64,000 bases of DNA from Gaiellaceae bacterium (GCA_035556515.1 DATMEO010000087.1:902-64901); one strand, 5' to 3'; counted from the first letter of the stretch, positions 45,027-59,992 are shown. The notes: a model not told the origin generated them from the sequence alone. Program-made: numbers and translations.

Positions 45027-45140
45027 GACTCGATGGTACGCCTGAAGAGGTCGCTGGAGCTACCTTCGCCTTGACATGTCACGGGTCCAAGGTCGACACT
45101 CATGGCCGTGCTCCGCGCCCCGACCCGAGGAGGACAGGTC

Positions 45141-46163
45141 ATGCGCCGACTGGCCCTGACGCTACTCGCCGCCGCGCTCTGTGCCGCGCTGGCGACCGTG
45201 CCCGCAAGCGCACGGTCCGACGTCCGCACCGTCGACTCGATCGACTATGCAACGTCGTTCGGGAACTTCGGCCGCGACGCCTATGTGTACGTCGCGATCG
45301 AGAAGGGCTACTTCCGGCAGGCCGACCTCGAGGTCAACGTCACCAGCGGCCCCGGCTCGGTCGACAACATGAAGTTCGTCGCGGCCGGGCGGCTCGACTA
45401 CGCTCCGGTCGACATCGGCGCCCTCGTCGTCACGCGCGCGAACGAAAACGTGCCGGTGAAGGTGGTGAGCGTCGTCCACCAGAACACGATGTCGGCGATC
45501 CTGTCGCTGCAGGAGTCGGGCCTGCGGCGCCCGCAGGATCTCGTCGGCAAGACACTGGCGGACTCCCCGGCGTCGACCGTCCGTGTGCTCTTCCCGCTCT
45601 ATGCGAAGAAGGCCGGGATCGATCCTGCGCGTGTGAGCTGGCGCGACGCGGCACCGCCCGCGCTGCCGGCGCTGCTGGCGTCGAAGCAGGTCGACGGGAT
45701 CGGGCAGTTCGTCGTCGGCCGGCCTCTGATCGCCGCCGCCGCCGGCAAGCCCGTCGTCGCGCTCCGTTACTCGGATCACCTGCCGGGCCTGCTCGGAATC
45801 GGGATCATCGCCTCGGACACGAAGATCCGCTCGCGCCCGGGTGAGGTGCGGCGCTTCGTCCGGGCGATCAACCGCGGCCTCAAGTACGCACTCGACAACC
45901 CTGTCGAGGCCGGTCGGATCCTGAAGAAGCACCAGCCGCTCGTGAACGAGGAGGTCGCGGTGCGCGAGCTGAAGACGATGAAGTTCTTCGTCGAGACCCA
46001 GGGAGCGCGCCGGCACGGCATCGGCTACATCGACATCCAGAAGATGAAGTCGACCACCAGTGTCGTCGCGAGTGGCTTCCGGCTGCAGGCCAAGATCGGC
46101 TACCGAGACATCTACGCTCCGAACTTCGTCAAGACGGCGACGTACGTGCCGCCGAAGAAGTGA
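45141..46163 (+). CDS. ABC transporter substrate-binding protein (NMT1/THI5-like, NitT/TauT family)
   Basis: RBS GAGGAGGA, ATG 45141, signal peptide LALTLLAAALCAALATVPASA. Periplasmic binding fold pattern (GYFRQADLEVNV...GRLDYAPVD). Confidence 0.85.
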   Translation: MRRLALTLLAAALCAALATVPASARSDVRTVDSIDYATSFGNFGRDAYVYVAIEKGYFRQADLEVNVTSGPGSVDNMKFVAAGRLDYAPVDIGALVVTRANENVPVKVVSVVHQNTMSAILSLQESGLRRPQDLVGKTLADSPASTVRVLFPLYAKKAGIDPARVSWRDAAPPALPALLASKQVDGIGQFVVGRPLIAAAAGKPVVALRYSDHLPGLLGIGIIASDTKIRSRPGEVRRFVRAINRGLKYALDNPVEAGRILKKHQPLVNEEVAVRELKTMKFFVETQGARRHGIGYIDIQKMKSTTSVVASGFRLQAKIGYRDIYAPNFVKTATYVPPKK

Positions 46164-46182
46164 GGAGGGCGGCGGCCGCGCC

Positions 46183-46956
46183 GTGATCTCGATCGCAGGC
46201 GTCTCGAAGTCGTTCCCGGCCCGCGGGCGCGGTCAGTCGGCGTTGCGCGCGCTCGAGCGAATCGATCTCGAGGTCGATGAAGGTGAGCTCGTCACGCTGG
46301 TCGGCCGCTCGGGCTGCGGCAAGTCGACGCTGCTGCGGATCCTCGCGGGGCTGATCCCGCCGAGCGAGGGCCGGGTGACCATCGCCGGCAAGGAGGTGCG
46401 CGGGCCGAGCAGTGCCGTCGCCCTCGCCTTCCAACGGCCGGCGCTCCTGCCGTGGCGAAACGTGCTCCAGAACGTGCTCCTGCCGGTGGAGATCCTCGGC
46501 CTCGGTCGGCAGGCGCACCGGCGGAAGGCGGAGGAGCTGCTCGCGCTCGTCGGGCTCGCGGGCTTCGAGAGCAGCGCACCCTACGAGCTCTCCGGTGGCA
46601 TGCAGCAGCGCGTCGCACTCTGCCGGTCGCTCATCTACGAGCCGCGCGTGCTGCTGATGGACGAGCCGTTCGCCGCCCTCGACGCGCTCACGCGCGAGGA
46701 GCTGTCCCTCGAGCTCCAGCGGATCCTGGCGGAGCGGGGAAAGACGATCGTCTTCGTCACGCACTCGATCTCGGAGGCCGTCCTGCTCGCCGACCGGGTC
46801 GTCGTGATGACGCCGCGGCCGGGGCGGATCGCCGAGATCGTCCCCGTCGAGGCGGAGCGGCCGCGCTCGCTCGGGATGGCGGGCTCCGAGCAGCTCGCGC
46901 ACGCGAGCGCCCGCGTGCACGACCTGTTGTTCGCGCCGGACGCCGCGGCGGCATGA
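46183..46956 (+). CDS. ABC transporter ATP-binding protein (NitT/TauT family)
   Basis: Walker A GRSGCGKSTLL, signature LSGGMQQRVAL, Walker B LLMDEPFAALD. GTG 46183. Confidence 0.92.
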   Translation: MISIAGVSKSFPARGRGQSALRALERIDLEVDEGELVTLVGRSGCGKSTLLRILAGLIPPSEGRVTIAGKEVRGPSSAVALAFQRPALLPWRNVLQNVLLPVEILGLGRQAHRRKAEELLALVGLAGFESSAPYELSGGMQQRVALCRSLIYEPRVLLMDEPFAALDALTREELSLELQRILAERGKTIVFVTHSISEAVLLADRVVVMTPRPGRIAEIVPVEAERPRSLGMAGSEQLAHASARVHDLLFAPDAAAA

Positions 46957-47765
46957 GCACGGTCGTGCAACCCACACCCCAGTCGCAGCGCCGGCGTCGG
47001 CTTCATCTGCGCGCCGTGGCCGGCGTCGTGCTGCCGCTGGCGACGCTTGCGCTGCTCGTCGTCGCGTGGGAGCTCGCGACGAGGATCTTCGACTGGCCGA
47101 TCTGGCTCGTCCCAGGTCCGGGTGACGTCTGGAGCGCGCTCGTCGAGAATCGCTCGCTCCTGCCTCGGCACTTCCGCGTCACCCTCGTGGAGACGCTCGG
47201 GGGCTTCGCGCTCGCGATCTGCGTCGGCATCCCGCTCGCCGTCGCGATCGCCTCGTCGAGACTGCTGGAGCGCACGATCTACCCCGTCCTGCTCGGGCTG
47301 AACGCCGTCCCGAAGATCGCGATTGCGCCGATCCTCGTCCTCTGGATGGGCTTCGGCTACGGCCCGAAGATCGTCGTCACATTCCTGCTCTGCATCTTTC
47401 CGATCGTGATCTCGACCGCGACCGGTCTCAAATCGACGCCGCCGGAGCTCGTGGAGCTCGTGCGCTCGCTCGACGCCTCGCGTTTCGCACTCTTTCGGCG
47501 CGTGCGCTTCCCATCGGCGTTGCCGCACATCTTCGTCGGGCTGAAGGTCGCGATCTCGCTCGCGGTCATCGGCGCCGTGATCGGAGAGTTCGTCGGTGCC
47601 GAGGCCGGGCTCGGCCACGTGATCATCGCCTCGGGCAGCAACGTCGACACCTCGCTCGCGTTCGGCGCGATGGTGCTGCTCGGCGTCCTCAGCGTCGCGC
47701 TCTTCTATGCGCTCGTGGGGATCGAGCGCCTGCTCGTCCCCTGGGCCCGCCACGAGGAGCACTAG
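46953..47765 (+). CDS. ABC transporter permease (NitT/TauT family)
   Basis: ATGA overlap with the ATPase gene. Six TM helices and an EAA-like loop (ELVRSLDASRFALFRRVRFPSALPH). Confidence 0.9.
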   Translation: MSTVVQPTPQSQRRRRLHLRAVAGVVLPLATLALLVVAWELATRIFDWPIWLVPGPGDVWSALVENRSLLPRHFRVTLVETLGGFALAICVGIPLAVAIASSRLLERTIYPVLLGLNAVPKIAIAPILVLWMGFGYGPKIVVTFLLCIFPIVISTATGLKSTPPELVELVRSLDASRFALFRRVRFPSALPHIFVGLKVAISLAVIGAVIGEFVGAEAGLGHVIIASGSNVDTSLAFGAMVLLGVLSVALFYALVGIERLLVPWARHEEH

Positions 47766-47822
47766 ATCACCGGCGTCGCGTTCGATCCGCTCGACCCGGC
47801 GCAGCGCGAGGACCCGTTCCCG

Positions 47823-48977
47823 GTGCTCGACCGCGCGCGCGAGGAGCAACCGGTGTTCTACGCGCCCGAGTTCGACCTCTGGGTTGTGACCCGCTACGAC
47901 GACGTCCTCGCAGTCGTCAAGGACCACGACACGTTCTCCTCCGCCGGCGCGCTGAAGTCGTCCCCAGAGCCGTTTCCGCCCGAGGTCGAGGCGGTGCTCG
48001 CGGAGGGCTGGCCGGCGATGCCGTACATCATCGAGATCGACCCGCCGCTGCACGACCGGATCCGCGGTCTCGTCACACGGGCGTTCACACCGAAGCGGAT
48101 CGCCGAGCTGGAGCCGCGGATTCAGGCGATCGCGACCGAGTTCGTCGACGAGCTGGCCCCCCTTGGGCGGGCCGACGTGATCGAGAAGGTCGCCTGGCCG
48201 CTGCCGCTACGGGTGCTCGGCGAGCTGCTCGGGTTCCCGCGCGAAGACCTCGCGCAGCTGCACGAGTGGGGAACGGACTGGCTGCTCCTGCAGCAGCCCG
48301 GAACCGTCGAGGAGCGGGTGCGGCACGCGCACGGGCTCGTCGCGCTCCAGCGCTACATGTTCGCCGCGCTCGAGGAGCGCGAGCGGGAGCCGCGCGACGA
48401 CCTCCTCGGCGCGCTGATGGCCGCACGCGCGGAGTCCGACGATCCGCTGCCGCTGGACGCCGTGGCCGGGCTGCCGCTCGACCTCGTCGTCGCCGGCCAC
48501 GTCACCGTGACACGGGCGATCGGGAGTGCGCTCGCGCTCGTCTTCCGCCATCCGGCGCTGGGCGAGCACCTGCTCGACCCCGAGCTCGCGCCGCTTGCGA
48601 TCGAGGAGATCCTTCGACTCGAGTCGCCCGCGCAGGGCCTCTTCCGCGTCACGACCCGAGCGACGGAGCTCGGCGGCGTCGAGCTGCCCGAGGGAGCCCG
48701 CGTGATGGCCCACTTCGGCTCGGCGAACCGCGACGAGTGTGTCTTCGCCGACGCCGGCCGCGTCGATCCGGAACGCGACGGCCTCGCCCGGCACCTCGCC
48801 TTCGGCAAGGGGATCCATTTCTGCATCGGCGCGCCGCTCGCGCGGCTCGAGCTGAGGATCGTGCTCCCGCTCCTCCTCCGGCGTCTCCCCGGACTGCGGC
48901 CGGTCGGCGACATGGCGCGCGAGCCCGTCTTCTTCGCGCGCGGCTTCCAGCGGCTGGTGATCGAATGGGACGTCTAG
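47823..48977 (+). CDS. cytochrome P450
   Basis: ExxR EEILRLESP. Heme loop FGKGIHFCIGAPLA. The first canonical start is GTG 47823, but P450-like N-terminal sequence continues upstream to the permease stop (see finding). Confidence 0.9.
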   Translation: MLDRAREEQPVFYAPEFDLWVVTRYDDVLAVVKDHDTFSSAGALKSSPEPFPPEVEAVLAEGWPAMPYIIEIDPPLHDRIRGLVTRAFTPKRIAELEPRIQAIATEFVDELAPLGRADVIEKVAWPLPLRVLGELLGFPREDLAQLHEWGTDWLLLQQPGTVEERVRHAHGLVALQRYMFAALEEREREPRDDLLGALMAARAESDDPLPLDAVAGLPLDLVVAGHVTVTRAIGSALALVFRHPALGEHLLDPELAPLAIEEILRLESPAQGLFRVTTRATELGGVELPEGARVMAHFGSANRDECVFADAGRVDPERDGLARHLAFGKGIHFCIGAPLARLELRIVLPLLLRRLPGLRPVGDMAREPVFFARGFQRLVIEWDV

Positions 48978-49651
48978 AGGCGGTCGACGACGCTCGCCCA
49001 CTCGGGCGTGCGCGGGTCGATCAGCTCGAAGTGGCCCGCGCCCGGCAACTCCAGCAACTCGACGTCAGCGGCCTGTGCGAAGGCCCGGCTGTAGTCGAAC
49101 GGGACGCGGTCGTCCTCGGTGCCGTGGGCGAGCAGCACGGGCACGGTCACGGGCAGCCGGCGCATTGGATCGGCGTGCGCCGGGGGCTCCGGACCCGCGA
49201 ACTCGACCGCGGCGTTCGCGCCGATGCCCTCGCGGGCGGCGCGCGCGAGATCGGTCACGCCGGCGAGCGCAACCGCCTTCTCGACCTTCCCCGTGCCGGC
49301 TGCCCAGAGCACGAGGTGGCCTCCCGCGGAGTGGCCGATCGCAACGCCGGAACCGGTCACGTCGAGCGCCGCCGCGGTGTCGGCGAGCGTGTTCTCGAGG
49401 CCGGTGCGCCGGTACTCGACGTTCCACGTCGTCCAGCCGCGCAGCGTGAGGTCGACCGCGAGGGCGCGTGTGTTCGAACGGGTGAAAGCGGGACGCCAGA
49501 AGCCGCCGTGGACGAGGATTGCGCTGCGGTCCCCGCCGCGCCTGACGTCGACCACCTGGTCGGGGTCCTCGCCGTAGGCGACCGTCTCGAAGCCGGGCTC
49601 GCGCTCTTCCGCCCAGGCGGCGAGCTCGGCGAGGAGAGCGTCGAGATCCAC
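48974..49651 (-). CDS. alpha/beta hydrolase (esterase/arylformamidase-like)
   Basis: HGGFW oxyanion-type motif, nucleophile elbow GHSAGGH, C-terminal HGTEDDRVP and GAGHF. GTG 49651. Confidence 0.8.
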   Translation of the reverse strand: MDLDALLAELAAWAEEREPGFETVAYGEDPDQVVDVRRGGDRSAILVHGGFWRPAFTRSNTRALAVDLTLRGWTTWNVEYRRTGLENTLADTAAALDVTGSGVAIGHSAGGHLVLWAAGTGKVEKAVALAGVTDLARAAREGIGANAAVEFAGPEPPAHADPMRRLPVTVPVLLAHGTEDDRVPFDYSRAFAQAADVELLELPGAGHFELIDPRTPEWASVVDRL

Positions 49652-49662
49652 CGGGCGAGTCT

Positions 49663-50376
49663 ATGAGCCGCGAGGTCGCGATCGTCACCGGGGGGTCGCG
49701 CGGGCTCGGTCTCGCCTACGTCGGCGGGTTGAGGGAAGCGGGCTTCGACGTCGTCGTCGCCGACCTGAGTGAGAGCGACGCAGCCGATCTGTACGTGCAC
49801 GTCGACGTCGCCGATCCAGAGTCGACGGAGGCGATGGCAAGCGCGGTCCTCGAGCGCTTCGGTCGCATCGACGTGCTGATCAACAACGCCGGCTATTTCA
49901 CGCAGATCGTCAAGAAGCCCTTCGAGGACCTGACCGTCGAGGAGTGGGATCTCGCTTTCTCGGTCAACGTCCGCGGAACCTGGCTCTGCTGCCGCGCGGT
50001 CGCACCGACGATGAAGGCGCAGCGCTCGGGGAAGATCGTCAACACCTCGTCGATGACAGTGCCGAGCGGGATTCCCGGCTTTCTCCACTACGTCGCGTCG
50101 AAGTCCGCGATCGTCGGGCTCACCCGGGCACTCGCGCGCGAGCTCGGCGAGTGGGGGATCTGCGTCAACACGATCAGCCCTGACTACGTGCCGCACGACC
50201 CCGACTACGCCGGGCGCCAGCCCGAGATGGCCGCGGCTATCGCGAGCCAGCGCGCGTTCAAGCGCGACCAGGTGCCCGAGGACCTCGTCGGCACTGTCCT
50301 CTTCCTCGCGGGACACGGCTCCGACTTCGTCACCGGCCAGGATCTCTGGGTGAACGGCGGCCGGCTCTTCAACTAG
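49663..50376 (+). CDS. SDR family oxidoreductase (3-oxoacyl-ACP reductase-like)
   Basis: VTGGSRGLGLA, NNAG, YVASKSA. Confidence 0.9.
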   Translation: MSREVAIVTGGSRGLGLAYVGGLREAGFDVVVADLSESDAADLYVHVDVADPESTEAMASAVLERFGRIDVLINNAGYFTQIVKKPFEDLTVEEWDLAFSVNVRGTWLCCRAVAPTMKAQRSGKIVNTSSMTVPSGIPGFLHYVASKSAIVGLTRALARELGEWGICVNTISPDYVPHDPDYAGRQPEMAAAIASQRAFKRDQVPEDLVGTVLFLAGHGSDFVTGQDLWVNGGRLFN

Positions 50377-51068
50377 CTAGCCAGGCTGTGGACCCGGTCG
50401 GCCGCGTCGGCTGTGATCGGGTCGCCGTGGCCGACGCCGACGATCGCTGCGTCGAGCCCGGCCATGCGGCGGATCGACTCGGCGTGCTGCTCTGGGTTGA
50501 GCGTGAACGCCGGCCAGCCCGCCTCGAAGCGCGGCCACGTCGCGATCGCGTCGCCCGAGAGCAGCAGCTTGTGCTCGGGCCAGGAGAAGGCGAGGTGACC
50601 GGGCGAGTGACCGGGCACGTGGAGCACGCGCAAAGGGCCGACCGCGTCGCCGTCGCCGACGCTCTCGTCGATCGGGACCGGCCGGTGCTTCGGCCGGTTG
50701 AGGAAGATCCCGACCTGGAACGGGTACGTGCGCAGCGGCGCCGTCGGCTTCAGCCCGACCGGCTGCGCCGGCCGGTCGCCGGAGATGATGTCGGCCTCCG
50801 ACTCGTGTGCGAGCACGGTGGCGCCCGTCTCCCGCTTCAGCGCGGCCAGCCCGCCGAGGTGGGAGCGGTGTGCGTGCGTGAGCACGATCCGCCTCAGATC
50901 GCCGGGTTTGCGGCCGAGCCGCCTGATCGCGTCGAGGACGCCGCGGGCGTCGTTCTCGAAGAGCGTGTCGACGAGCGAGAGCTCGCCGTTCATGTCGACC
51001 AGATACGCACGGACGCGGCCGCCCTTCTTGGCGCCGAGCATGTGCACGCCGGGCGCGAGCTCCCTCAC
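50373..51068 (-). CDS. MBL-fold metallo-hydrolase
   Basis: LTHAHRSHLGG (HxHxxH variant), VPGHSPGH, GHGDP. GTG 51068 overlaps the peroxidase stop (GTGA). ATG 51086 is an alternative start. Confidence 0.85.
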   Translation of the reverse strand: MRELAPGVHMLGAKKGGRVRAYLVDMNGELSLVDTLFENDARGVLDAIRRLGRKPGDLRRIVLTHAHRSHLGGLAALKRETGATVLAHESEADIISGDRPAQPVGLKPTAPLRTYPFQVGIFLNRPKHRPVPIDESVGDGDAVGPLRVLHVPGHSPGHLAFSWPEHKLLLSGDAIATWPRFEAGWPAFTLNPEQHAESIRRMAGLDAAIVGVGHGDPITADAADRVHSLAS

Positions 51069-52864
51069 GCGGAGACCCTCTTCCACGGGGCGAAGGCATT
51101 GTCGACGCCGCGCAGCGCCGGCTCGAGCGCCGGATAGTGGCGCAGCAGCACGTCGCCCATGCTCGTCTCGTCGATCCAGTCGAGCCCTGTCTGCGTGTAT
51201 GTCTCCGCGTTGTAGTCGCGGGTGAAGAAGCGGTCGCTCTTTAGCCGCCGCGACGCCATCAGGATGAAGACGCGAAAGGCGGTGTCGCTGAAGCCGAAGC
51301 CCTTCGGCAGCGGCTCCGCGTAGAGCCCGACCATCAGGTCGACCTTCTCGACGTCGCCGTAGACCTCACGCAGCTCCCGCGCCCACTCGGGATTGTCGGT
51401 CAGCTCCTCGAACGTCTCCGCGGGCTTGAGGTGGAAGAGGCGCCGGAACTCGTTGTAGCGGGGAACGCCGCGCTCGCGGATCCGGAGCACGTCGATCGCG
51501 GCGAGGTCGACGAGGGTGCCGTCCGGCTTGTGCAGCTCCTGCAGGAAGCGCGGATAGTTGTGCAGTGTGATCGCGCCCGGGTGTGCGATCCCGAACGAGT
51601 AGAGCGAGTCGACGAAGCCGACCTCGTCGAGGCGGGCGCGGACGTCGTTGACGCCGAGCTCACGGAACGTCCGCTCCTGCAGCACCTCGTCCGTCTCGAT
51701 CGACCTGAAGGTGAAGTCATCGGGGAGGAGCGGGTGCATCCGGTAGACGGCGACGAACTCCTCGGTGAGCGAGTAGGGGACGCCATGGTGGTCGGTCGCC
51801 GAGCCGGGAATGCCGCCGAGCACCTCGTTCGAGCTTCGCTTCCCCAGCCGCTTGCCGAGGATGCCGTACCAGTTGGCGCGCATCGCGTACGTGGTCGTCG
51901 GGTGGGCGATGATCGCTGGTGTCCACTCGACGGTGTGGATCTTCGCCATCAGCGCCGCCGTGATCAGCCGCGCCGTTGCGAAGAGCCGGTCGTCCGTCCA
52001 CTCGGGGTGCTCGGCCGCGAGCCGGCCGGCGATCGCGTTGTGCTCGTGGCTGAAGAGCGTGTGCAGGAGCGCGAGCCCGAGCCAGAAGTTGCCGGCGACG
52101 CCGGTCAGGTCGACCTTGGCGTCGAGGTCGCGCGGCAGCTGGCCGTCGGCGTCGAGCCGGAGGCGGCCGCCCGTTCCTTCGCGGAGCGCGCTCGTGATCG
52201 CCGGCTCGCTGCCGTAGATCTGCGAGCCGTCCCACCAGTGCGAGTCGGTCGTCACCCACGTCGCGGCGCCGCCGTTCGCGTCCGGGAACGGGTCGGTGCG
52301 CGTGCGCTCGATCCGCATCGGCCGCTCGCGCCACGGATCGTCGCCGTCGAGCTCGAGCTCGAACGGTTGCTCGGGCAGGTTCTTGCCGTGGCTGAACCAG
52401 TCGTGCACCTCGAACTGAAGCCACGCGCCGGCGAGCACGTTCACGATCGTGGCCGGCTTGAACTCGTCGCGCGTCAGCAGCCGCCGGCTGACGAGGCGCG
52501 GACTCGGGTCGAGCAGGCCCGGCAGCGTCTCGGGATGGGTGCTGCCGAGTGGGACGTTGCGCCCAAAGCGGGCGCCGATCATGCCCATCGCCGGGCTGTC
52601 GAGGTCGTTGAAGCTCCCGTCGACCGTGCGTGCGTTGGGGGGACCGCCGTTCGGAGCGGCCTTCGCACCGCCGGCGCCGGTGTCGTGCAGATTCTCCTCG
52701 CGCAGGCGCGTCCGCAGGCCGACGAGCGTCAGCACGCCGAGCGGCCGCGGCAGGCGATCCCAGCCGAAGCGCCGGTCGAGCGCGCCGGCGGTCGCGGTCA
52801 GCAGCTTCGAGAGAGGACGGAACACGGCCCGACCGATGAAAACATTGCCTGTTGGCGGCGTCAA
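51065..52864 (-). CDS. heme peroxidase-cyclooxygenase superfamily protein, fatty-acid alpha-dioxygenase/COX-like
   Basis: Distal His motif WLQFEVHDWFSHG (His codon 52403-52405). LFSHEHNAI. HGVPYSLTEEFVAVYRMHPLLPDDF, with Tyr (51743-51745) and proximal His (51734-51736) spaced as in the COX motif Y-H-W-H. TTG 52864 overlaps the AAA+ stop (TTGA). Confidence 0.88.
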   Translation of the reverse strand: MTPPTGNVFIGRAVFRPLSKLLTATAGALDRRFGWDRLPRPLGVLTLVGLRTRLREENLHDTGAGGAKAAPNGGPPNARTVDGSFNDLDSPAMGMIGARFGRNVPLGSTHPETLPGLLDPSPRLVSRRLLTRDEFKPATIVNVLAGAWLQFEVHDWFSHGKNLPEQPFELELDGDDPWRERPMRIERTRTDPFPDANGGAATWVTTDSHWWDGSQIYGSEPAITSALREGTGGRLRLDADGQLPRDLDAKVDLTGVAGNFWLGLALLHTLFSHEHNAIAGRLAAEHPEWTDDRLFATARLITAALMAKIHTVEWTPAIIAHPTTTYAMRANWYGILGKRLGKRSSNEVLGGIPGSATDHHGVPYSLTEEFVAVYRMHPLLPDDFTFRSIETDEVLQERTFRELGVNDVRARLDEVGFVDSLYSFGIAHPGAITLHNYPRFLQELHKPDGTLVDLAAIDVLRIRERGVPRYNEFRRLFHLKPAETFEELTDNPEWARELREVYGDVEKVDLMVGLYAEPLPKGFGFSDTAFRVFILMASRRLKSDRFFTRDYNAETYTQTGLDWIDETSMGDVLLRHYPALEPALRGVDNAFAPWKRVSA

Positions 52865-53868
52865 CCGAGCCAGCGGCGGCGCTTCGGGCGTGCGTCGGTG
52901 CTCTCGCCGAGCACGCGCGCCGCCTCGAGCAGGTCGTCGGCCTCGAGCGTCGTCACCTCGTCGAGGCGGAGCTCCTCCAGCGCCCGGCCTTCGACCTGGG
53001 CAAGCCGCAGCGCCTGGCGGTTGAGCGCCTGCTCGAAGATCGTGCGCGCGTAGCGGGCGTTGCCGAAGCCCTCGCCGCGGGCGGCGCCGGCGAAGATGCG
53101 CTCGAGGGCGTCGTCGGCACCCGGCCCGAGCTCGTACTCGTGCTCGGCCGCCAGCCGGCGCGTAATCTCGAGCAGGTCGCCGGTCGAGTAGTCCGGGAAC
53201 GAGATCTCGCGGGCGAAGCGCGAGCGCAGGCCCGGATTGGAGTCGAGCAAGGCGCGCATCAGCCGCGGATAGCCGGCGACGATGACGACGAGGCGATGGC
53301 GGTGGTCCTCCATTCGCTTCAGCAGCGTCTCGACCGCCTCGGCGCCGAAGTCGAGCCGCCCGTCGCCTCCGCCCGGTGTCAGCGCGTAGGCCTCGTCGAT
53401 GAAGAGGACACCGTCGAGCGCGCGGCGGATCGCCCGGTCGGTCTTGATCGCCGTCTGGCCGACGTACTGGCCGACCAGTGACGCGCGATCGACCTCGACG
53501 AGATGGCCCTTCTCGAGTAGCCCCATCGCGCCGTACATCTCGGCGAGCAGGCGCGCCACCGTCGTCTTGCCGGTGCCGGGGTTGCCGAGGAAGACGAGGT
53601 GCTGGCTCGTCGCCACTTCGGGCAGGTCGTGCTCCTTGCGGCGGGCCTGTACCTGCAGGAACGCGAGCAGAGCGTGTACCTGCTCCTTGACCGTCTCGAG
53701 CCCGACGAGACCGTCGAGCTCCGCCTGCAGCTCCGTCAGCGGCCGCGGCGGCGTCGCCCTCGGCCCGAGGCCGAGCAGGTCCTCGAGCTCGGGACCGGCG
53801 GTTCGGCGCAGCTGGTCGCCGATCTGGCGCGCGGCGCCGCGGAGATTCTCGATCGGATTCGGAGGCAT
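52861..53868 (-). CDS. AAA+ ATPase, CbbX/SpoVK/EccA-like
   Basis: Walker A GNPGTGKTTVA, Walker B VLFIDEAYAL, sensor/arginine region SNPGLRSRF. Confidence 0.9.
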   Translation of the reverse strand: MPPNPIENLRGAARQIGDQLRRTAGPELEDLLGLGPRATPPRPLTELQAELDGLVGLETVKEQVHALLAFLQVQARRKEHDLPEVATSQHLVFLGNPGTGKTTVARLLAEMYGAMGLLEKGHLVEVDRASLVGQYVGQTAIKTDRAIRRALDGVLFIDEAYALTPGGGDGRLDFGAEAVETLLKRMEDHRHRLVVIVAGYPRLMRALLDSNPGLRSRFAREISFPDYSTGDLLEITRRLAAEHEYELGPGADDALERIFAGAARGEGFGNARYARTIFEQALNRQALRLAQVEGRALEELRLDEVTTLEADDLLEAARVLGESTDARPKRRRWLG

Positions 53869-53887
53869 GAGCCGGGTGTACCCGCGG

Positions 53888-54514
53888 TCAGCGTTCCTCT
53901 AGCGCCCGCCGCAGCTCGGACACCTGTTGCTCGAGCCGGGCGACTCGCTGCTCGAGGGACGGGGAAGCTTGTGTCTGATAGACACTTTCGACGTTTGACG
54001 AACGTTCCGGCTCGGGCGGCACCGGCGCGTCCTCGCCGCCGAGGAGCTGGCGCCACCGGTCCTGGCTCTGGCCGGCGCGGCGCGGGAGCTTCTCGGCGAG
54101 CTCGGCCGCAGCCAGCGCGTCGAGCGCCTGCTCGACGTCCTCGATCGATCCGTACGGATAGAGCCGCTCGACGCGCTGCTTCAGCTCGCCGGGCGTCTGC
54201 GCGCCACGGAGCATCAGCACGGCGAGCAGTGCGATCTGGGAGGGGACACGGCCGAGCGCGTCGTCGAGCAGATGGCGGTACTTGGCCACGCGGCTCCCCG
54301 GCCCGCTCGCGAGCCGCACCCAGCCGCGCCGCGAGAGGCGGTCGAGTGCCGCGCGGATCTCCGTTTCGTCGTAGTCGGCGACCGGATCGCGGTTGGTCGC
54401 CTGATTGCAGGCGAGCCGAAGCGCGTTCAGCGAGAGCGGGTACTGATCGGGCGTCGTCCGCTGCTTCTCGACCAGGCAGCCGAGTACCCGAATCTCAACG
54501 GCGTCCGCGTCCAC
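53888..54514 (-). CDS. YceH/DUF480 family protein
   Basis: Collinear with E. coli YceH as I remember it: RVLGCLVEKQRTTPDQYPLSLNAL..ACNQATNRDPV and LLAVLMLRGAQTPGELKQR, with a C-terminal coiled coil. GTG 54514. Confidence 0.85.
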   Translation of the reverse strand: MDADAVEIRVLGCLVEKQRTTPDQYPLSLNALRLACNQATNRDPVADYDETEIRAALDRLSRRGWVRLASGPGSRVAKYRHLLDDALGRVPSQIALLAVLMLRGAQTPGELKQRVERLYPYGSIEDVEQALDALAAAELAEKLPRRAGQSQDRWRQLLGGEDAPVPPEPERSSNVESVYQTQASPSLEQRVARLEQQVSELRRALEER

Positions 54515-54541
54515 GGGCGAAACCGTAGCGCCGCAGCGCGG

Positions 54542-54694
54542 TCAGCTGAGCGGGCTGTGCCGCGGTCCCCGCGGCGTCGTGCTGCGCCGGCCCCACTCCT
54601 CGATCGACCTGCCGGCGGCGCGGATGCCGCCGCACCAGGCGAAGCCGAAGAGCACGAGGAGATAGAGGACGAGGATGACGATCCAGTCGCGCAT
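54542..54694 (-). CDS. possible small membrane protein (50 aa), absent from the supplied ORF track (below its size cutoff)
   Basis: AAGGAGG lies 4 nt upstream of ATG 54694. Product MRDWIVILVLYLLVLFGFAWCGGIRAAGRSIEEWGRRSTTPRGPRHSPLS. GC3-rich. TGA 54542-54544. It sits 27 nt upstream of the DUF480 gene. Confidence 0.45.
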   Translation of the reverse strand: MRDWIVILVLYLLVLFGFAWCGGIRAAGRSIEEWGRRSTTPRGPRHSPLS

Positions 54695-54755: not shown

Positions 54756-54823
54756 CGGGGGCCGCTGAGCGGCCCCCTTCAGGGATCTTCGCGCTGAGCG
54801 TCCGCCTGAGGCGGATGCTCAGC
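54756..54823. repeat. bipartite hairpin repeat, copy 3
   Basis: Sequence CGGGGGCCGCTGAGCGGCCCCCTTCAGGGATCTTCGCGCTGAGCGTCCGCCTGAGGCGGATGCTCAGC. Hairpin 2 is GCTGAGCGTCCGCC/GGCGGATGCTCAGC (14 bp, with the same G/A mismatch as copy 1). It contains the TGA stop (54819-54821) of the FAD oxidase gene. Confidence 0.6.
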
Positions 54824-56204
54824 TTGCGGGCGGAACAGGATGGTTCGAGCGGATTAGATCCGTCGGGTCGACGATCGCCTTGATCCGGCGCAGGCGGTGG
54901 TAGCTCGCGCTCGAGAAGAGCGAGGCCGCCTTCCGCCGGGACTCGGCGAAGTTGAGGTAGGTGTGGTCTGCCTCCCACGGCTCGAGCGTTCCGCGCAGCC
55001 GCGCGACGGCGCCGTTGACGGCCTCACGGGCCTCGGGCGTCGGGGCGATCCCGATCGCGAACATCACGTACGGAGCCTCCCAGGCGTCGACGGCGCCGTG
55101 GCGGGAATCGCGCCGTGCGACCGCGCCGCCGAGGTGCCGGAGCTCTGCCGAGAGAATCGGCGAGCCGACGACCTGTTCGACGAAGAGGTCGATCAGGTGG
55201 CCGTCTACGTCGTCCAGCATGCCACCGTCACCGGTGCCGGGTGCGGGCCCCTCGGGATCCATGTGCAGCCGGCTCAGCTCCTCGACCGGGATCGTCATCA
55301 CCGTGTCCATCACCGGCCCGAGCGCGCGAAGCGGCTCCAGCCACGCTGCGCCCTCGGCCGGCTCGCCCGACCAGATCGCCTGGACGACCACGAACGACTG
55401 GCCGCGGACGGGCTCCGGGATCTCCGGGATCGGTGGGAACTGGAGGATCCGGCCGACCGACGTCATCTCGTCCGGCAGGTCGTCGGTCCACGCGCGCCAC
55501 GCCTTCAGGATCTCGGCCGCGCGGTCGACGGGATACCAGAGGATGCCCGCGTAGACCTGCGAGATCGGGAAGAGGTTGAACTCGATCGCGGTCACGATCC
55601 CGAAGGAACCGCCGCCGCCGCGAAGTGCCCAGAACAGGTCGGGCTCGTTGGCCCAGTCGGTGCGGACGACGTCGCCGGAGGCCGTGACGACCTCGATCGC
55701 GGTCACCTGGTTGGCGCCGATGCCATGGTTGCGCGCGAGCCAGGACAGGCCGCCGCCGAGCGTGTAGCCGACGACACCGACATCGGGCGAGGAGCCCGCG
55801 AGGGCGGCGAGACCGTGCTCGGCCGCAGCCTCGACAACCTCGATCCAGATCACGCCCGCCTCGGCGCGTGCGATCCGGTTCTCCGGGTCGACCGTGACGC
55901 CGCGCATCCGCTCGGTCTTGAGCAGGATCGTGTCGGACATGTCGCCCATCGCCGCGGCGCCGTGGCCGGTGCCCTGGGGGGCGATCCGGAGGCCGTGGGC
56001 CTTGGCGAACGCGACCGTGGCGGCGACGTCGGCAGCCGACTCGGGCAGCACGACGGCCGCCGGGTTCTGGTCGACGGTCAGGTTCCAGGCGAGGCGGGCC
56101 TCGTCCCACTCGACGTCGCCGGGTGCGACCGCGTCGCCGTCCAGCAGGTTCCGCAGCGGGCCGACGTCGAGCCCGGTCTCACGCCTTGTCAGGATTTCGG
56201 TCAT
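54819..56204 (-). CDS. FAD-binding (PCMH/FAD_binding_4, BBE-like) oxidoreductase
   Basis: VVLPESAADVAATVAFAKAHGLRIAPQGTGHG, VGVVGYTLGGGLSW, and a C-terminal BBE-like region. Confidence 0.9.
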   Translation of the reverse strand: MTEILTRRETGLDVGPLRNLLDGDAVAPGDVEWDEARLAWNLTVDQNPAAVVLPESAADVAATVAFAKAHGLRIAPQGTGHGAAAMGDMSDTILLKTERMRGVTVDPENRIARAEAGVIWIEVVEAAAEHGLAALAGSSPDVGVVGYTLGGGLSWLARNHGIGANQVTAIEVVTASGDVVRTDWANEPDLFWALRGGGGSFGIVTAIEFNLFPISQVYAGILWYPVDRAAEILKAWRAWTDDLPDEMTSVGRILQFPPIPEIPEPVRGQSFVVVQAIWSGEPAEGAAWLEPLRALGPVMDTVMTIPVEELSRLHMDPEGPAPGTGDGGMLDDVDGHLIDLFVEQVVGSPILSAELRHLGGAVARRDSRHGAVDAWEAPYVMFAIGIAPTPEAREAVNGAVARLRGTLEPWEADHTYLNFAESRRKAASLFSSASYHRLRRIKAIVDPTDLIRSNHPVPPAS

Positions 56205-56284: not shown

Positions 56285-57736
56285 TCAGCCCTGAGGACGA
56301 ACCGGGCTCGTCCGGGCGGACGACGCCGGCGCCTGCGGCACGGCGGCTTCCAGCCGCCGCAGCGGCCGCGAGCCGATCGAGACGGCGATCGCGGCGGCGA
56401 CGAGCGCGGTGACGGCGCTGAGCGCGAAGGTGATCGTGAACGCCGACTCGGCCGGTACCGAGGAGTCGCCGATCGTGCGTGCCGTCAGCAGGGCGGCGCC
56501 GACCTGGCCGCCGACGACGCCGCCGATCATCCGGACGACGGTGTTCATTCCGCCCGCCACGCCCATCTCGCGTGGGTCGACGTTGTCGGCGATCAGCCCG
56601 GCCATCGCCGCGAACGCGGCCCCGACACCGAGGCCGAGCAGGGCGCTCGCAAGCAGGACCGGGCCAGGCTCGTCGTGCATGGCGGCGAACAGCAGTGCGG
56701 CGACGCTGACGACCAGCATCCCGATCGCCAGCGGCCACTTCGAGCCGTAGCGCCGCCCGAGCGCTCCCGCGAGCGGGCCGGCGACGAGCATCGCCAGCGA
56801 GCTCGGGAGCAGGTAGAGCCCCGCTTTCGTGGCGCTCGCGCTGAAGCCGTAGCCGTTGCTCGCGTCGGTTTCGACGAACGCCGGGACGAGGACGAAGCAG
56901 CTGAAGAGCGCGAACCCGGAGATCAGCGTGGCGATGTTGGTGAGCAGGATCGGGCGGTGCGCGAGCATGCGCAGGTCGACCATCGGCGAGCTCGAGCGCG
57001 ACTCGACGACACCCCAGAGGACGAACGAACCTGCCGCGAGCGCGAGCACGCCGAGCAGAAGCGGCGAGCCCCAGCCCCAGTGCTCGCCCTCGGTCAGCGC
57101 GAGCATCAGCGAGATCAGCCCGCTGGAGAGGAGCAGCGCGCCCGGCACGTCGACCCGGGACGGGGAGCGGATCGGCGACTCGGGCACGTAGCGGGCGACG
57201 AGCACGAGCGAGAGGGCGACAGGAATCGAGCCGAGCAGGAAGAGCAGCCGCCAGGAGAAGTTGTCGACGATCAGCCCCGAGAGCACGATCCCGAAGCCGC
57301 CGCCGACACCCCAGACGGCCGAGAGCAGGCCGATCCCGACCTTGACCTTGTCGGCCGGGAACTCGTCGCGGATGATCGCGAAGCTGAGCGGGAAGAGGGC
57401 GCCGCCCGCGCCGGAGACGATGCGGAAGGCGATCAGCGACCAGAGGTTCCAGGCGAAGGCGGCTCCGAGGCAGCCGGCGAGGAAGAGCCCGAGGCTGATC
57501 AGCAGCAGCCGCTCCTTGCCGAACTGGTCGCCGAGGCGGCCGAGGATCGGCGTCAGCACCGCGCCCGAGACGAGGAAGCCGGTCAGCACCCACGTCGTCC
57601 AGGCGGTGCTCGAGCCGAACTCCTCCTGAAACGTCCGCAGGGCGGGGAAGACCATCGTCTGCTGGAGCGAAAACGCGGCGCCCGCCAGCGTCAGGATCGC
57701 GAGCGTGACGTTGTGGTGCTGGCGCTCGTGATCCAT
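56285..57736 (-). CDS. MFS transporter, DHA2 (EmrB/QacA, 14-TM) type
   Basis: About 14 hydrophobic segments. Motif A-like GRLGDQFGKERLLL. Confidence 0.92.
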   Translation of the reverse strand: MDHERQHHNVTLAILTLAGAAFSLQQTMVFPALRTFQEEFGSSTAWTTWVLTGFLVSGAVLTPILGRLGDQFGKERLLLISLGLFLAGCLGAAFAWNLWSLIAFRIVSGAGGALFPLSFAIIRDEFPADKVKVGIGLLSAVWGVGGGFGIVLSGLIVDNFSWRLLFLLGSIPVALSLVLVARYVPESPIRSPSRVDVPGALLLSSGLISLMLALTEGEHWGWGSPLLLGVLALAAGSFVLWGVVESRSSSPMVDLRMLAHRPILLTNIATLISGFALFSCFVLVPAFVETDASNGYGFSASATKAGLYLLPSSLAMLVAGPLAGALGRRYGSKWPLAIGMLVVSVAALLFAAMHDEPGPVLLASALLGLGVGAAFAAMAGLIADNVDPREMGVAGGMNTVVRMIGGVVGGQVGAALLTARTIGDSSVPAESAFTITFALSAVTALVAAAIAVSIGSRPLRRLEAAVPQAPASSARTSPVRPQG

Positions 57737-57892
57737 CGCCCCACGCTAGCCGCTGCGTCCCGACCTCCGCGTGAGTGGACGGATTTCCACCCCTGAGGTG
57801 TGGTACGGTCGCGCCGGCTCCTGTCCGCCGGGGGGTGGCAGGGGACATTCGACCCCGGCGGCGCCGCGCGTCCGGGGAAAGGGAGGGGCCAG

Positions 57893-59992
57893 ATGAGAGA
57901 GAAGTCTCGACACCGGGGAGCCCGTCGCTTCGCCGTGCTCGTGCTCTTCGCCGTGACCGCCTCGATCGCCTCGTCGGCGAGCGCGGAGATCCCGCCGGAC
58001 GCCGCGAACCACCCGCTGCTCCAGCCGATCGACGCGCAGAACTGGGTCGATCAGGGGGAGCTGACATGGGACGCCTACACGCAGGCCCGGCCGGACTCCT
58101 GGAACGACACGACGGGCTCGGATGGCTCCGTCAGCCAGTACCGGACGGCCGTCATCCTGCTCGAGTTTCAGGACCAGCCGATGCTGATCACGCAGCCGGC
58201 CGGCGCGCATCCGTTCGGCAATCCGCAGTCGGGTTGGGAGCCGGTTCCGCGTGAGGACGTCGCGGATTGGTACTACGACTACTACGCCGTGCCGAACCAG
58301 TACAACGGCGGCCAGACGCTGCACGGGTACTGGATGGAGGACAGCCACGGCCAGATCGGCGTCGACGTCGAGGTGTTCGGGCCGTACACGCTGCCCGGCA
58401 AGCTGCACGAGTACGGCATCCCCGACGGAGGCTTCAACGCCCCACGCGAGGCGTACTGCCCGCAGGGAGACAGCTGCACCAAGAACTTGCGCACCGACGG
58501 AGGCGCGCTCTGGCGGGCCGACATCGGCTGCCCGTCGGGCCTCTGCGGTTTCGACAACGGCTTCTACGTCAGCGCCGGCCACGACGAGTCGTCGACGTGG
58601 CAGGAGTTCGGCGAGATGATGTTCCAGACGCGCGACGACATTCCGGACGCTTTCGGGCCGCCGCGCAATCCCGACGGGAGCGCGCCGCTGAACCAGCTCG
58701 GGCAGCCGATGCCGAACTGGGCGGACACCCGCTACGTCGACTGGACGTCGTGGAGGGCGGCCGCCAACCACTGGCCGAACGCCGGCGGCGGCACGTCGAC
58801 GCAGGCCGAGAGCTCGGGGCTCAGCGTCTTCGCCCACGAGTTCAGTCACCTCCGCGGCCTGCCTGACAACTACAACAACCCGTTCGCCGACAACGAGCGC
58901 AACTTCACCGGCTACTGGGAGATGATGAGCCGAGGCACGTTCAACGGCCCGGGCGGGACGCACAACCGCTGGCAGGTCCCGAACCAGGGCGGCTCCGGGC
59001 TCGGTCCGCACCACCTGCTCCATTTCAAGAACCAGCTCGGCGTACTCACGCCCGCCGACCAGGTCACGCTGCAGCGGGACACGCTGGCGGGCCAGGGAAT
59101 CGCGGTCGTCGACCTGAAAGCGCGCGAGTCCGTGCCCGACGGCGACCTCGTCGGCCTGACGGTCGGCCTCGGATCGGGTGATCTCGCCGGGACGTGCGCG
59201 AACCAGGGCTACACGGGCGCGGACGTCTTCTATTGCCCGAACCGCACGGGGCCGAACTACCTCCACTACCGGCTGGAGGTCGTCGACCGGGTCGGGAACG
59301 ACTCGTTCATCCCCGGGCACGGGGTGCTGCTCACGAAGAGCCGCAACAGCGGCACGCCGCGCGTCTGGATGATCGACCCGAATCCGCAGGACATCGGGAT
59401 GATCGACTTCTACCGGCCGGACGGAACGCCGGTTGCGGTCGTCCGCGGTGACCCGCGGCAGCTGAACGACGCCACGTTCCACGCGGGCACCCGCTCCGGG
59501 AGCGCCTACGAGTACGTGGACACGTTCAACAACCTGCACTTCTACGTGCTCGCAGCGCGCAGGAGCGCCGACGGCGTCCTCAACTACGACGTCGGCGTCC
59601 GCCGCGTCGGCCAGGGCGATCCGTTCGCACGGGGAACGGCGGTCGGGAACCCGGCGAAGAAGGGGCAGCGGCCGGGCTTCCTCGCGACCTGCACGTTCCC
59701 ACTCACGAACACCGGGACGGCCGGGACCGGCGTGTTCGACTCCGACATCTACCGGCTGTCGGCGAGCTCGAGCAGCCCCGACTGGAAGGTGACGCTGCCG
59801 AACGCGCTCGCGGCGGCGAAGGCCGGTGAGACCGTGAGTGTCCCCGTGCACGTGCTCCGGGACCCGCTCACGGACGATGGGGACGCGCGCACAACGGTGA
59901 CGCTCAGCGCGGCCTCCGAATCGGACGCGTCCAAGACCGCGACGCGGACGTGCAACGTGCACGTGCGCGACACGACGCCGGGCGCGAAGTAG
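57893..59992 (+). CDS. secreted M6 (immune inhibitor A-like) zinc metalloprotease
   Basis: RBS GGGAGGGG, ATG 57893, signal peptide FAVLVLFAVTASIASSASA. HExxH in VFAHEFSHLRGLPDNYN. The layout resembles InhA/M6 peptidases. Confidence 0.85.
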   Translation: MREKSRHRGARRFAVLVLFAVTASIASSASAEIPPDAANHPLLQPIDAQNWVDQGELTWDAYTQARPDSWNDTTGSDGSVSQYRTAVILLEFQDQPMLITQPAGAHPFGNPQSGWEPVPREDVADWYYDYYAVPNQYNGGQTLHGYWMEDSHGQIGVDVEVFGPYTLPGKLHEYGIPDGGFNAPREAYCPQGDSCTKNLRTDGGALWRADIGCPSGLCGFDNGFYVSAGHDESSTWQEFGEMMFQTRDDIPDAFGPPRNPDGSAPLNQLGQPMPNWADTRYVDWTSWRAAANHWPNAGGGTSTQAESSGLSVFAHEFSHLRGLPDNYNNPFADNERNFTGYWEMMSRGTFNGPGGTHNRWQVPNQGGSGLGPHHLLHFKNQLGVLTPADQVTLQRDTLAGQGIAVVDLKARESVPDGDLVGLTVGLGSGDLAGTCANQGYTGADVFYCPNRTGPNYLHYRLEVVDRVGNDSFIPGHGVLLTKSRNSGTPRVWMIDPNPQDIGMIDFYRPDGTPVAVVRGDPRQLNDATFHAGTRSGSAYEYVDTFNNLHFYVLAARRSADGVLNYDVGVRRVGQGDPFARGTAVGNPAKKGQRPGFLATCTFPLTNTGTAGTGVFDSDIYRLSASSSSPDWKVTLPNALAAAKAGETVSVPVHVLRDPLTDDGDARTTVTLSAASESDASKTATRTCNVHVRDTTPGAK

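Follow-up and report, generated by a model that had tools for sequence, protein, structure and literature searches.

Which genes work together when the gene of a heme enzyme lies in a tight row of genes on the same strand? This question is raised by a 64,000-nucleotide stretch of DNA from a Gaiellaceae bacterium (GCA_035556515.1, DATMEO010000087.1:902-64901), hereafter called the window, whose coordinates are used throughout and whose G+C content is ~70%. An original prediction, made from this sequence, described five minus-strand open reading frames (ORFs) that code for a small membrane protein, a DUF480 (YceH) protein, a CbbX/SpoVK-like AAA+ ATPase, a heme peroxidase with features of fatty-acid dioxygenases and a metallo-beta-lactamase (MBL)-fold hydrolase, and proposed that they form one operon in which the AAA+ protein is a dedicated activase or chaperone of the peroxidase. 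Here, we report that the peroxidase, which we assign to the alpha-dioxygenase (alpha-DOX) branch and call DOX, and the MBL-fold protein, called MBL, form a self-contained, co-evolving and translationally coupled two-gene cassette. This cassette is apparently a widespread and undescribed two-gene unit. It is likely that the functional unit of the locus consists of DOX (about 52825-51065) and MBL (51068-50373), the DUF480 and AAA+ genes being independent of it.

Plants and a few cyanobacteria are known to have alpha-dioxygenases, which serve as biocatalysts for fatty aldehydes. In their reaction, a heme-generated tyrosyl radical abstracts a hydrogen from C2 of the fatty acid, and addition of O2 gives a 2-hydroperoxy acid that yields the Cn-1 aldehyde and CO2.

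Linkage of the dioxygenase and MBL genes

We collected 80 DOX loci, one genome per species, with flanks of up to 10 kb and with DOX sequences 53-83% identical to that of the window, and searched them by tblastn with the window proteins. An MBL gene was found less than 100 nt from the DOX gene in 17 of these 80 species: downstream on the same strand in 13, convergent in two and divergent in two. The reciprocal test started from an alignment of the MBL family, which retrieved 80 metagenome loci with MBL sequences 62-99% identical. Seven of them were uninformative, their upstream sequence being shorter than 135 nt, and DOX was present near MBL in every one of the 73 loci with usable flank, directly adjacent in all except one (L161). 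The cassette is frequent in soil metagenomes, where its relatives numbered at least 462.

The junction of the two genes was also highly constrained. The predicted GTGA overlap between the peroxidase stop codon and the MBL start codon was correct, and an exact 4-nt overlap of this kind, (A/G)TGA, was kept in 79 of 83 related same-strand loci. Moreover, the identity of DOX to its window counterpart correlated across loci with that of MBL to its own (r = 0.93, n = 43). A third conserved gene around the pair, for example one for a lipase, a CoA ligase, an aldehyde dehydrogenase or an enzyme of that kind, was sought and none was found. Thus, adjacency that is reciprocal and independent of orientation, a conserved 4-nt overlap and co-divergence were all observed, and it is on this linkage, this overlap, this correlation and the lack of a third gene that we base the definition of DOX-MBL as a self-contained cassette. 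Of the translational coupling claimed in the original prediction, the peroxidase/MBL part stands on a strongly conserved overlap, whereas the AAA+ part arose from a start codon placed probably too far upstream.

No paper describing an MBL partner of an alpha-DOX was found in the literature searched. DOX itself is a new member of a known family, and its pairing with an MBL carrying an HxHxSH motif is a variant of the known theme of a dioxygenase plus partner. In a large group of soil actinobacteria, alpha-DOX genes are seen here to be tied to the gene of an atypical MBL-fold protein by conserved translational coupling.

Assignment of the heme enzyme to the alpha-dioxygenase branch

In Pfam, DOX matched the animal haem peroxidase family (PF03098, E 1e-108, residues 79-581), and no NCBIfam model names it. 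Its best relatives of solved structure were rice alpha-DOX (4KVJ, E 7e-116, query residues 26-595) and Arabidopsis alpha-DOX (4HHR, E 1e-108), which matched over the full length. In the same PDB search the cyclooxygenases (COX-1 and COX-2) reached only E ~1e-17 over partial stretches, and true peroxidases (lactoperoxidase and myeloperoxidase) were weaker still, so that the cyclooxygenases are not the nearest branch of the superfamily and DOX does not belong with them.

The three motifs on which the original prediction relied (FEVHDWFSHG, LFSHEHNAI and YRMHPLLPD) were all found in the translation, and the residues that define alpha-DOX function could be placed by alignment. In rice alpha-DOX, H157 is the distal and H382 the proximal histidine, the catalytic Y379 is stacked by F375 and F552, H311 and R559 hold the carboxylate of the fatty acid, and T316 positions the alpha-carbon (PMC8720084). 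In the 599-aa numbering of DOX, and with an index in the aligned rice chain equal to the residue number plus 3, identical residues were present at all these positions in the alignment to 4KVJ: distal His154 (rice H157), proximal His377 (H382), catalytic Tyr374 (Y379), His310 (H311), Arg540 (R559), Thr315 (T316), Phe370 (F375) and Phe533 (F552). An alignment of 82 bacterial DOX homologues from the 80 species showed that Tyr374, His377, His310, Arg540, Thr315, Phe370 and Phe533 are invariant. The position of the distal His154 is occupied by Arg or Lys in 19 of the 82, which suggests that peroxidase-type activation may be dispensable or different in those enzymes; replacement of this histidine has already been noted for the alpha-DOX family (PMC8720084).

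The domain partners of the family point in a similar direction. An exhaustive search of representative sequences gave 959 DOX clusters at E below 1e-30, many with extra domains. When 150 diverse homologues were examined with phmmer, the extra domains tested proved to be catalase-related, lipoxygenase and TPR fusions; none of the 150 was fused to AAA+, MBL, DUF480 or cytochrome P450 (P450) domains. Catalase-related and lipoxygenase domains are classical fatty-acid-hydroperoxide enzymes, and the frequent fusion to one or the other ties the DOX clade to fatty-acid hydroperoxide chemistry.

Could the protein still be a generic peroxidase, engaged in H2O2-dependent oxidation or detoxification, with MBL as a co-expressed detoxifying hydrolase? 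The Pfam family is simply that of the animal haem peroxidases, the distal histidine and heme-binding residues are compatible with peroxidase activity, and the absence of a naming NCBIfam model would agree with such a view. On the other hand, DOX matches alpha-DOX better than lactoperoxidase or myeloperoxidase by 100 orders of magnitude, no variation is seen in the catalytic tyrosine, in the Arg and His that bind the carboxylate or in the residues of the channel, the distal histidine that is essential in true peroxidases is the very residue lost in 19 of the homologues, and the fusion partners are lipoxygenase and catalase-related domains. We consider this explanation very unlikely. Membership of DOX in the alpha-dioxygenase branch of the peroxidase-cyclooxygenase superfamily is well supported by its homology and its conserved active-site and carboxylate-binding residues, which bears out the original view of the protein as a fatty-acid dioxygenase rather than a simple peroxidase. 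Three points weigh against our reading of the locus: in a rough neighbour-joining tree a long branch separates the bacterial DOX clade from the plant enzymes, the MBL-linked DOXs are not monophyletic in that tree, and the C2 regiospecificity of DOX is read from its residues only.

Compared with the plant and cyanobacterial alpha-DOXs (OsaDOX 4KVJ/4HHS, Arabidopsis alpha-DOX1 4HHR, CalDOX, LepDOX and Crocosphaera alpha-DOX), DOX shows full-length homology and shares the distal and proximal histidines, the catalytic tyrosine, the stacking phenylalanines, the carboxylate-binding His and Arg and the Thr. Within the same bacterial clade, cyanobacterial loci show 53-56% identity to it. Alpha-DOX identity has been demonstrated for cyanobacterial members of the family, sequences of Actinobacteria and Cyanobacteria cluster together, and the actinobacterial members appear solely as leaves of the phylogeny (PMC8720084). 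No characterized actinobacterial alpha-DOX was found in the literature searched. Unlike the characterized enzymes, the DOX of the window is actinobacterial (Gaiellaceae/Thermoleophilia-like), is known from sequence alone, and is locked to the gene of an MBL-fold partner.

Features of the MBL-fold partner

The MBL protein carries the Pfam domain PF00753 (E 5e-27), and its family has an invariant motif, T-H65-x-H67-x-S69-H70-L-x-G, in which Ser takes the place of the Asp of the superfamily motif HxHxDH. In the window the motif reads H65-A-H67-R-S69-H70; it aligns with HHHPDH of TTHA1429, with Ser replacing Asp120, and the Ser was present in all 28 aligned family members. The protein therefore lacks the HxHxDH signature of the canonical dinuclear-zinc MBL hydrolases. 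The other ligand positions are kept (GH154(S/T)PG, GD173 and VGH214G), so that equivalents of His116, His118, His121, His196, Asp221 and His263, i.e., six of the seven canonical metal ligands, are retained. In addition, the family has motifs of its own: H88xxEAD (EADI), AQxV and GWxxFxLN.

Every score against named families was far below its cut-off. The best in NCBIfam was that of the B3 lactamases (73.6 vs 240 bits); GloB (48 vs 201) and AiiA (39 vs 375) also fell short. A structural model was built with AlphaFold2 (AF2) from a shallower alignment without the locus-derived MBL sequences; it had a mean confidence (pLDDT) of 79 and a pTM of 0.83 and showed a generic MBL fold, with a low-confidence insertion at residues 104-121. 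Foldseek and profile searches returned B3 lactamases, TTHA1429, TTHA1623, glyoxalase II, the PqsE thioesterase and lactonase/paraoxonase-like proteins (TM ~0.6-0.69), PqsE being among the best structural overlaps (TMq 0.66-0.69). Assignment of a specific reaction from fold and sequence was rejected, as only generic MBL hydrolases were returned.

The window protein thus shares the MBL fold and six ligand positions with the B3 lactamases, glyoxalase II, PqsE, TTHA1429 and the lactonase/paraoxonase-like proteins, but differs from these hydrolases in its HxHxSH motif, its own family motifs, the insertion and its strict gene linkage to a heme dioxygenase. The invariant replacement of Asp by Ser appears to mark a departure from ordinary MBL hydrolase chemistry, so that the protein may bring new chemistry to the MBL superfamily.

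A catalase-related partner in Mycobacteriales

A different arrangement was observed in 18 species of Mycobacteriales (Nocardia, Mycolicibacterium, Mycobacteroides and Mycobacterium), in which DOX is followed by the gene of a 374-aa protein and then by that of an 892-aa LuxR-type regulator with AAA_16, TPR and GerE domains (loci in Table 1). The gene of the 374-aa protein lies less than 100 nt from DOX, except in one species, where it is divergent at a distance of 296 nt. Neither Pfam nor a PDB search with one sequence recognized this protein; a profile of it and its relatives matched the catalase-related protein 3E4W (E 7e-24) and catalases (1e-14), by which its catalase-related nature is confirmed at the level of homology. 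Across the 80 species loci, MBL and the catalase-related partner were mutually exclusive next to DOX. The three-gene cluster of DOX, catalase-related protein and LuxR-type regulator was not found in the literature searched. With a sister alpha-DOX group bound to a catalase-related gene and a LuxR-type regulator, two concrete candidates for bacterial oxylipin or alpha-oxidation modules are now at hand, DOX-MBL and DOX/catalase-related/LuxR.

Dioxygenases with a genetically coupled partner have precedents. In Nostoc punctiforme, 10S-DOX is accompanied by a catalase-related hydroperoxide lyase that has a gene of its own, and the fungal DOX-CYP fusions are linoleate diol synthases and allene oxide synthases (PMC13049297). 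Like these systems (PMC13049297), the window has a dioxygenase of the COX superfamily coupled to a second gene; and as with Nostoc 10S-DOX, the sister actinobacterial DOXs neighbour a catalase-related gene, and many homologues are fused to one. Unlike in the Nostoc and fungal systems, the partner in the window has an MBL fold and is not a heme protein, and a role for it in hydroperoxide metabolism is suggested by its position. The alpha-DOX motif ASRRL is present in the DOX of the window; it differs from the terminal motif of 10S-DOX, GRxxSxIPAxxARxIGxDAFxQA (PMC13049297).

Possible role of the MBL-fold protein

By homology to the characterized enzymes, DOX would bind a free fatty acid, the carboxylate of which would be held by Arg540 and His310. 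The heme would then generate a radical on Tyr374 that abstracts the C2 hydrogen, and addition of O2 would lead to a 2-hydroperoxy fatty acid, expected to decay to the one-carbon-shorter aldehyde and CO2. MBL, presumably made in fixed coupling with DOX via the 4-nt overlap, probably works in the same lipid pathway, as it is the constant companion of DOX and co-evolves with it. There it could handle the hydroperoxide product, a task carried out elsewhere by catalase-related proteins, P450s or fused domains.

We tentatively favour such a downstream role, in which MBL would process the hydroperoxide formed by DOX, for three reasons. For dioxygenases of the COX superfamily and for lipoxygenases, coupling or fusion to a partner that transforms hydroperoxides is typical (PMC13049297); in the sister clade, a catalase-related protein occupies the same position and excludes MBL; and the change of Asp to Ser signals non-standard chemistry. 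Two observations speak against it: all the closest solved relatives of MBL are hydrolases (B3 lactamases, glyoxalase II, PqsE and lactonase/paraoxonase-like proteins), and an MBL-fold enzyme that processes hydroperoxides was not found in the literature searched. The role of a substrate-releasing hydrolase is nearly as likely.

In that alternative the cassette would be the same and MBL would act upstream of DOX: a thioesterase, esterase or lactonase, it would liberate the fatty acid from acyl-coenzyme A (acyl-CoA), acyl carrier protein (acyl-ACP), an ester or an N-acyl lactone. Its close solved relatives all cleave esters, thioesters, lactams or lactones, among them glyoxalase II and the acyl-CoA thioesterase PqsE with its high structural overlap; the majority of canonical metal ligands is kept; and the carboxylate that Arg559 and His311 of alpha-DOX bind has to be free (PMC8720084). 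Nevertheless, the invariant Ser at HxHxDH argues against a standard dinuclear hydrolase site, the partner in the sister lineages and fusions is of the hydroperoxide type, which corresponds to a downstream role, and no conserved acyl-carrier, lipase or CoA-ligase gene was seen near the cassette. We regard the upstream role as somewhat less likely than the downstream one, and roles other than these two account for the rest.

In its boldest form, the favoured downstream role would make the HxHxSH MBL a new hydroperoxide-transforming enzyme, for example a metal-dependent decarboxylase or lyase of 2-hydroperoxy acids, or else a reductase, which would form with alpha-DOX a self-contained two-enzyme pathway of alpha-oxidation or oxylipin formation. 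This is a speculative proposal, to which we give a minor share of our belief. If true, the two-enzyme pathway would be common in soil Thermoleophilia and Rubrobacteria, and MBL would fill the role of the catalase-related proteins and P450s found in cyanobacteria, Mycobacteriales, corals and fungi.

Relationship of the AAA+ and DUF480 genes to the cassette

The AAA+ protein (PF00004 with AAA_lid_6) and the DUF480 protein (PF04337, E 1e-54) are encoded immediately upstream of DOX. Among solved structures, AAA+ was closest to CbbX (E 2.5e-56) and EccA1, with E-values in the range of 1e-53 to 1e-56, and like CbbX, SpoVK and EccA it has a single AAA module with AAA_lid_6. However, its NCBIfam scores were far below the curated cut-offs of CbbX (TIGR02880; 230.8 vs 459.25 bits), SpoVK (281.8 vs 422.95) and EccA (268 vs 466.65), so that it belongs to none of these three families as defined there. 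There were no Rubisco genes among the neighbours at 45-60 kb of the window and no type VII secretion genes among the AAA+ neighbours examined; unlike in the three families, the conserved partner of AAA+ is DUF480.

The comparison of loci separated this pair from the cassette. The original prediction had called for a survey of the AAA+/peroxidase/MBL trio and had named a gene linkage confined to this genome as evidence against itself. The MBL-DOX linkage proved to be conserved, but tblastn found neither AAA+ nor DUF480 within 10 kb of DOX in any of the 80 other species, including the 17 with DOX-MBL. For AAA+, the linkage essentially fails to hold elsewhere, which is not the case for MBL. Among metagenome loci with enough upstream flank, AAA+ accompanied DOX only where DOX was at least 77% identical to that of the window. 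In these close relatives (DOX 77-88% identical) DUF480-AAA+ is kept upstream of DOX-MBL, but AAA+ and DOX are set apart by a YjbR gene, a 63-aa ORF or spacers of 35 to 798 nt, and in one locus AAA+ lies downstream of MBL.

Conversely, two loci (L086 and L087) have AAA+ sequences 80-83% identical to that of the window, as similar as those of DOX-carrying relatives, and contain DUF480-AAA+ in the same syntenic block with no DOX-MBL in the variable slot that follows. The DUF480-AAA+ pair was syntenic in L002, L005, L086 and L087, and the gap between the two genes was 17-22 nt with or without DOX-MBL (window 52861-54514; L086:5369-7011; L087:6001-7638). A 545-aa fused DUF480-AAA+ gene call (P0383/L087:6001-7638) was not used, as its Arg/Ser-rich low-complexity junction looks like a frameshift or assembly error. 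No paper on DUF480-AAA+ pairs was found in the literature searched. Most simply, DUF480-AAA+ can be read as a conserved pair of its own in this Gaiellales-like lineage, independent of DOX-MBL. Together with the small ORF it would form an independent syntenic module, downstream of which the DOX-MBL cassette may have landed in the variable slot.

The proposal of one functional operon, in which the CbbX-like AAA+ would act as dedicated activase or remodeller, for example by rescuing self-inactivated DOX, has to be judged against these data. In the window the genes share a strand and are closely spaced, the order DUF480-AAA+-DOX-MBL persists in the close relatives just mentioned, and CbbX and EccA are the nearest solved structures. 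All this is outweighed by the absence of AAA+ and DUF480 near DOX in all 80 other species, by the restriction of AAA+ to the nearest DOX relatives, by AAA+ orthologues of ~80% identity that pair with DUF480 in the same synteny without DOX-MBL, by the variable spacers and inserted genes, by the lack of any AAA+ fusion among the 150 homologues and by the score below the CbbX cut-off. The activase or one-operon model as a general system appears largely refuted by these comparisons, and we regard it as highly improbable. The claims of a dedicated chaperone and of a single four- or five-gene module are hence not upheld, and the removal of an idea as tempting as a Rubisco-activase-like chaperone for a heme dioxygenase should spare experimental effort. 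Some points still count against full independence of the two modules: AAA+ and DOX are 35 nt apart or overlapping in the window, they are probably co-transcribed in this genome, and a lineage-specific functional link between them is possible.

Gene boundaries and organization of the locus

All five minus-strand ORFs of the original prediction were confirmed (Table 1). Its domain calls for MBL, peroxidase, AAA+ and DUF480 agreed with Pfam, the 50-aa ORF being without a family in both Pfam and NCBIfam, and the gaps of 27 nt (small ORF/DUF480) and 19 nt (DUF480/AAA+) were correct as read from the sequence. The exception is the TTGA overlap of AAA+ and peroxidase, which exists only if the longest ORF, beginning with TTG at 52864, is translated. 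A start codon (ATG, GTG or TTG) was present at the position of DOX residue 14 (GTG at 52825) in eight of 12 loci, window included, an in-frame stop rules out the longer N-terminus in three relatives, and database gene calls for DOX are mostly 586 aa long. Based on these three observations, the most likely start of DOX is the GTG at 52825, 35 nt past the AAA+ stop codon; across relatives this spacer ranges from 35 to 798 nt. A scan of the region for promoters and terminators gave no matches in this 70% G+C DNA. Co-transcription in this genome is plausible.

Table 1. Coordinates of the genes and sequence elements discussed (window positions unless a locus is given)
Feature	Position	Strand	Remarks
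DOX, alpha-dioxygenase-family heme enzyme	51065..52825	-	586 aa from probable GTG; PF03098
DOX, longest ORF	to TTG at 52864	-	599 aa
MBL-fold partner protein	50373..51068	-	231 aa; PF00753, E 5e-27
GTGA, MBL start codon over DOX stop codon (translational coupling)	51065..51068	-	read from sequence
AAA+ ATPase, SpoVK/EccA/CbbX-like group	52861..53868	-	335 aa; PF00004 and AAA_lid_6
DUF480 (YceH-like) protein	53888..54514	-	208 aa; PF04337, E 1e-54
Small ORF, hydrophobic N-terminus	54542..54694	-	50 aa; no family match
FAD/BBE-type oxidase	54819-56204	-	syntenic block shared with relatives
MFS transporter	56285-57736	-	syntenic block shared with relatives
Secreted M6 (immune inhibitor A-like) metallopeptidase	57800-59992	+	flanks the region
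Mycobacteriales DOX/catalase-related loci	L023, L028, L031-L033, L035, L037, L041, L043-L045, L048, L053-L056, L066, L070
Mycobacteriales cluster, example coordinates	L032:10001-12915; L044:12849-15527

Database relatives of the window proteins came from metagenome-assembled genomes named as Gaiellaceae, Thermoleophilia or Actinomycetota. The sequence of the window locus was present only in metagenome DNA runs (soil, root or winery), and one soil-metagenome contig of 7.3 kb (L088) was 99-100% identical to it. The 50-aa ORF is conserved only in close relatives, with 72-73% identity in L090 and L097 by tblastn, and its place is taken by other genes in L001 and L002.

Genes next to the cassette and the variable slot

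Downstream of the cassette, a gene for a short-chain dehydrogenase/reductase (SDR; 49663-50376, plus strand) converges on the MBL gene (50373-51068, minus strand), and the two stop codons overlap by 4 nt. The trio of SDR, alpha/beta-hydrolase and P450 after DOX-MBL was seen only in the closest relatives of the window (L088 and L097). In one related lineage (L001-L003; e.g., L002:12453-13640), the stop codon of MBL is where a P450 gene begins, and the order is DOX-MBL-P450, which recalls the fungal DOX-CYP fusion enzymes; this P450 is not orthologous to that of the window (47823-48977), the two having no tblastn match.

The window neighbours at 45-60 kb code for an ABC transporter, P450, hydrolase, SDR, FAD/BBE oxidase, MFS transporter and M6 peptidase. 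The block common to L086 and L087 consists of ABC-F, FAD/BBE oxidase, MFS, DUF480 and AAA+, then the variable slot, then QueF and SufD; a protein of ~1060 aa follows the slot in L086 and had no match in L087. This slot, i.e., the stretch between AAA+ and the conserved ~1060-aa protein (about 45100-50376 in the window), carries different cargo in different relatives: DOX-MBL followed by SDR, alpha/beta hydrolase, P450 and ABC transporter in the window, unrelated small genes in L087, nothing in L086, only DOX-MBL in L005, and YjbR-DOX-MBL-P450-QueF-NDT in L002 (12453-14391 compared).

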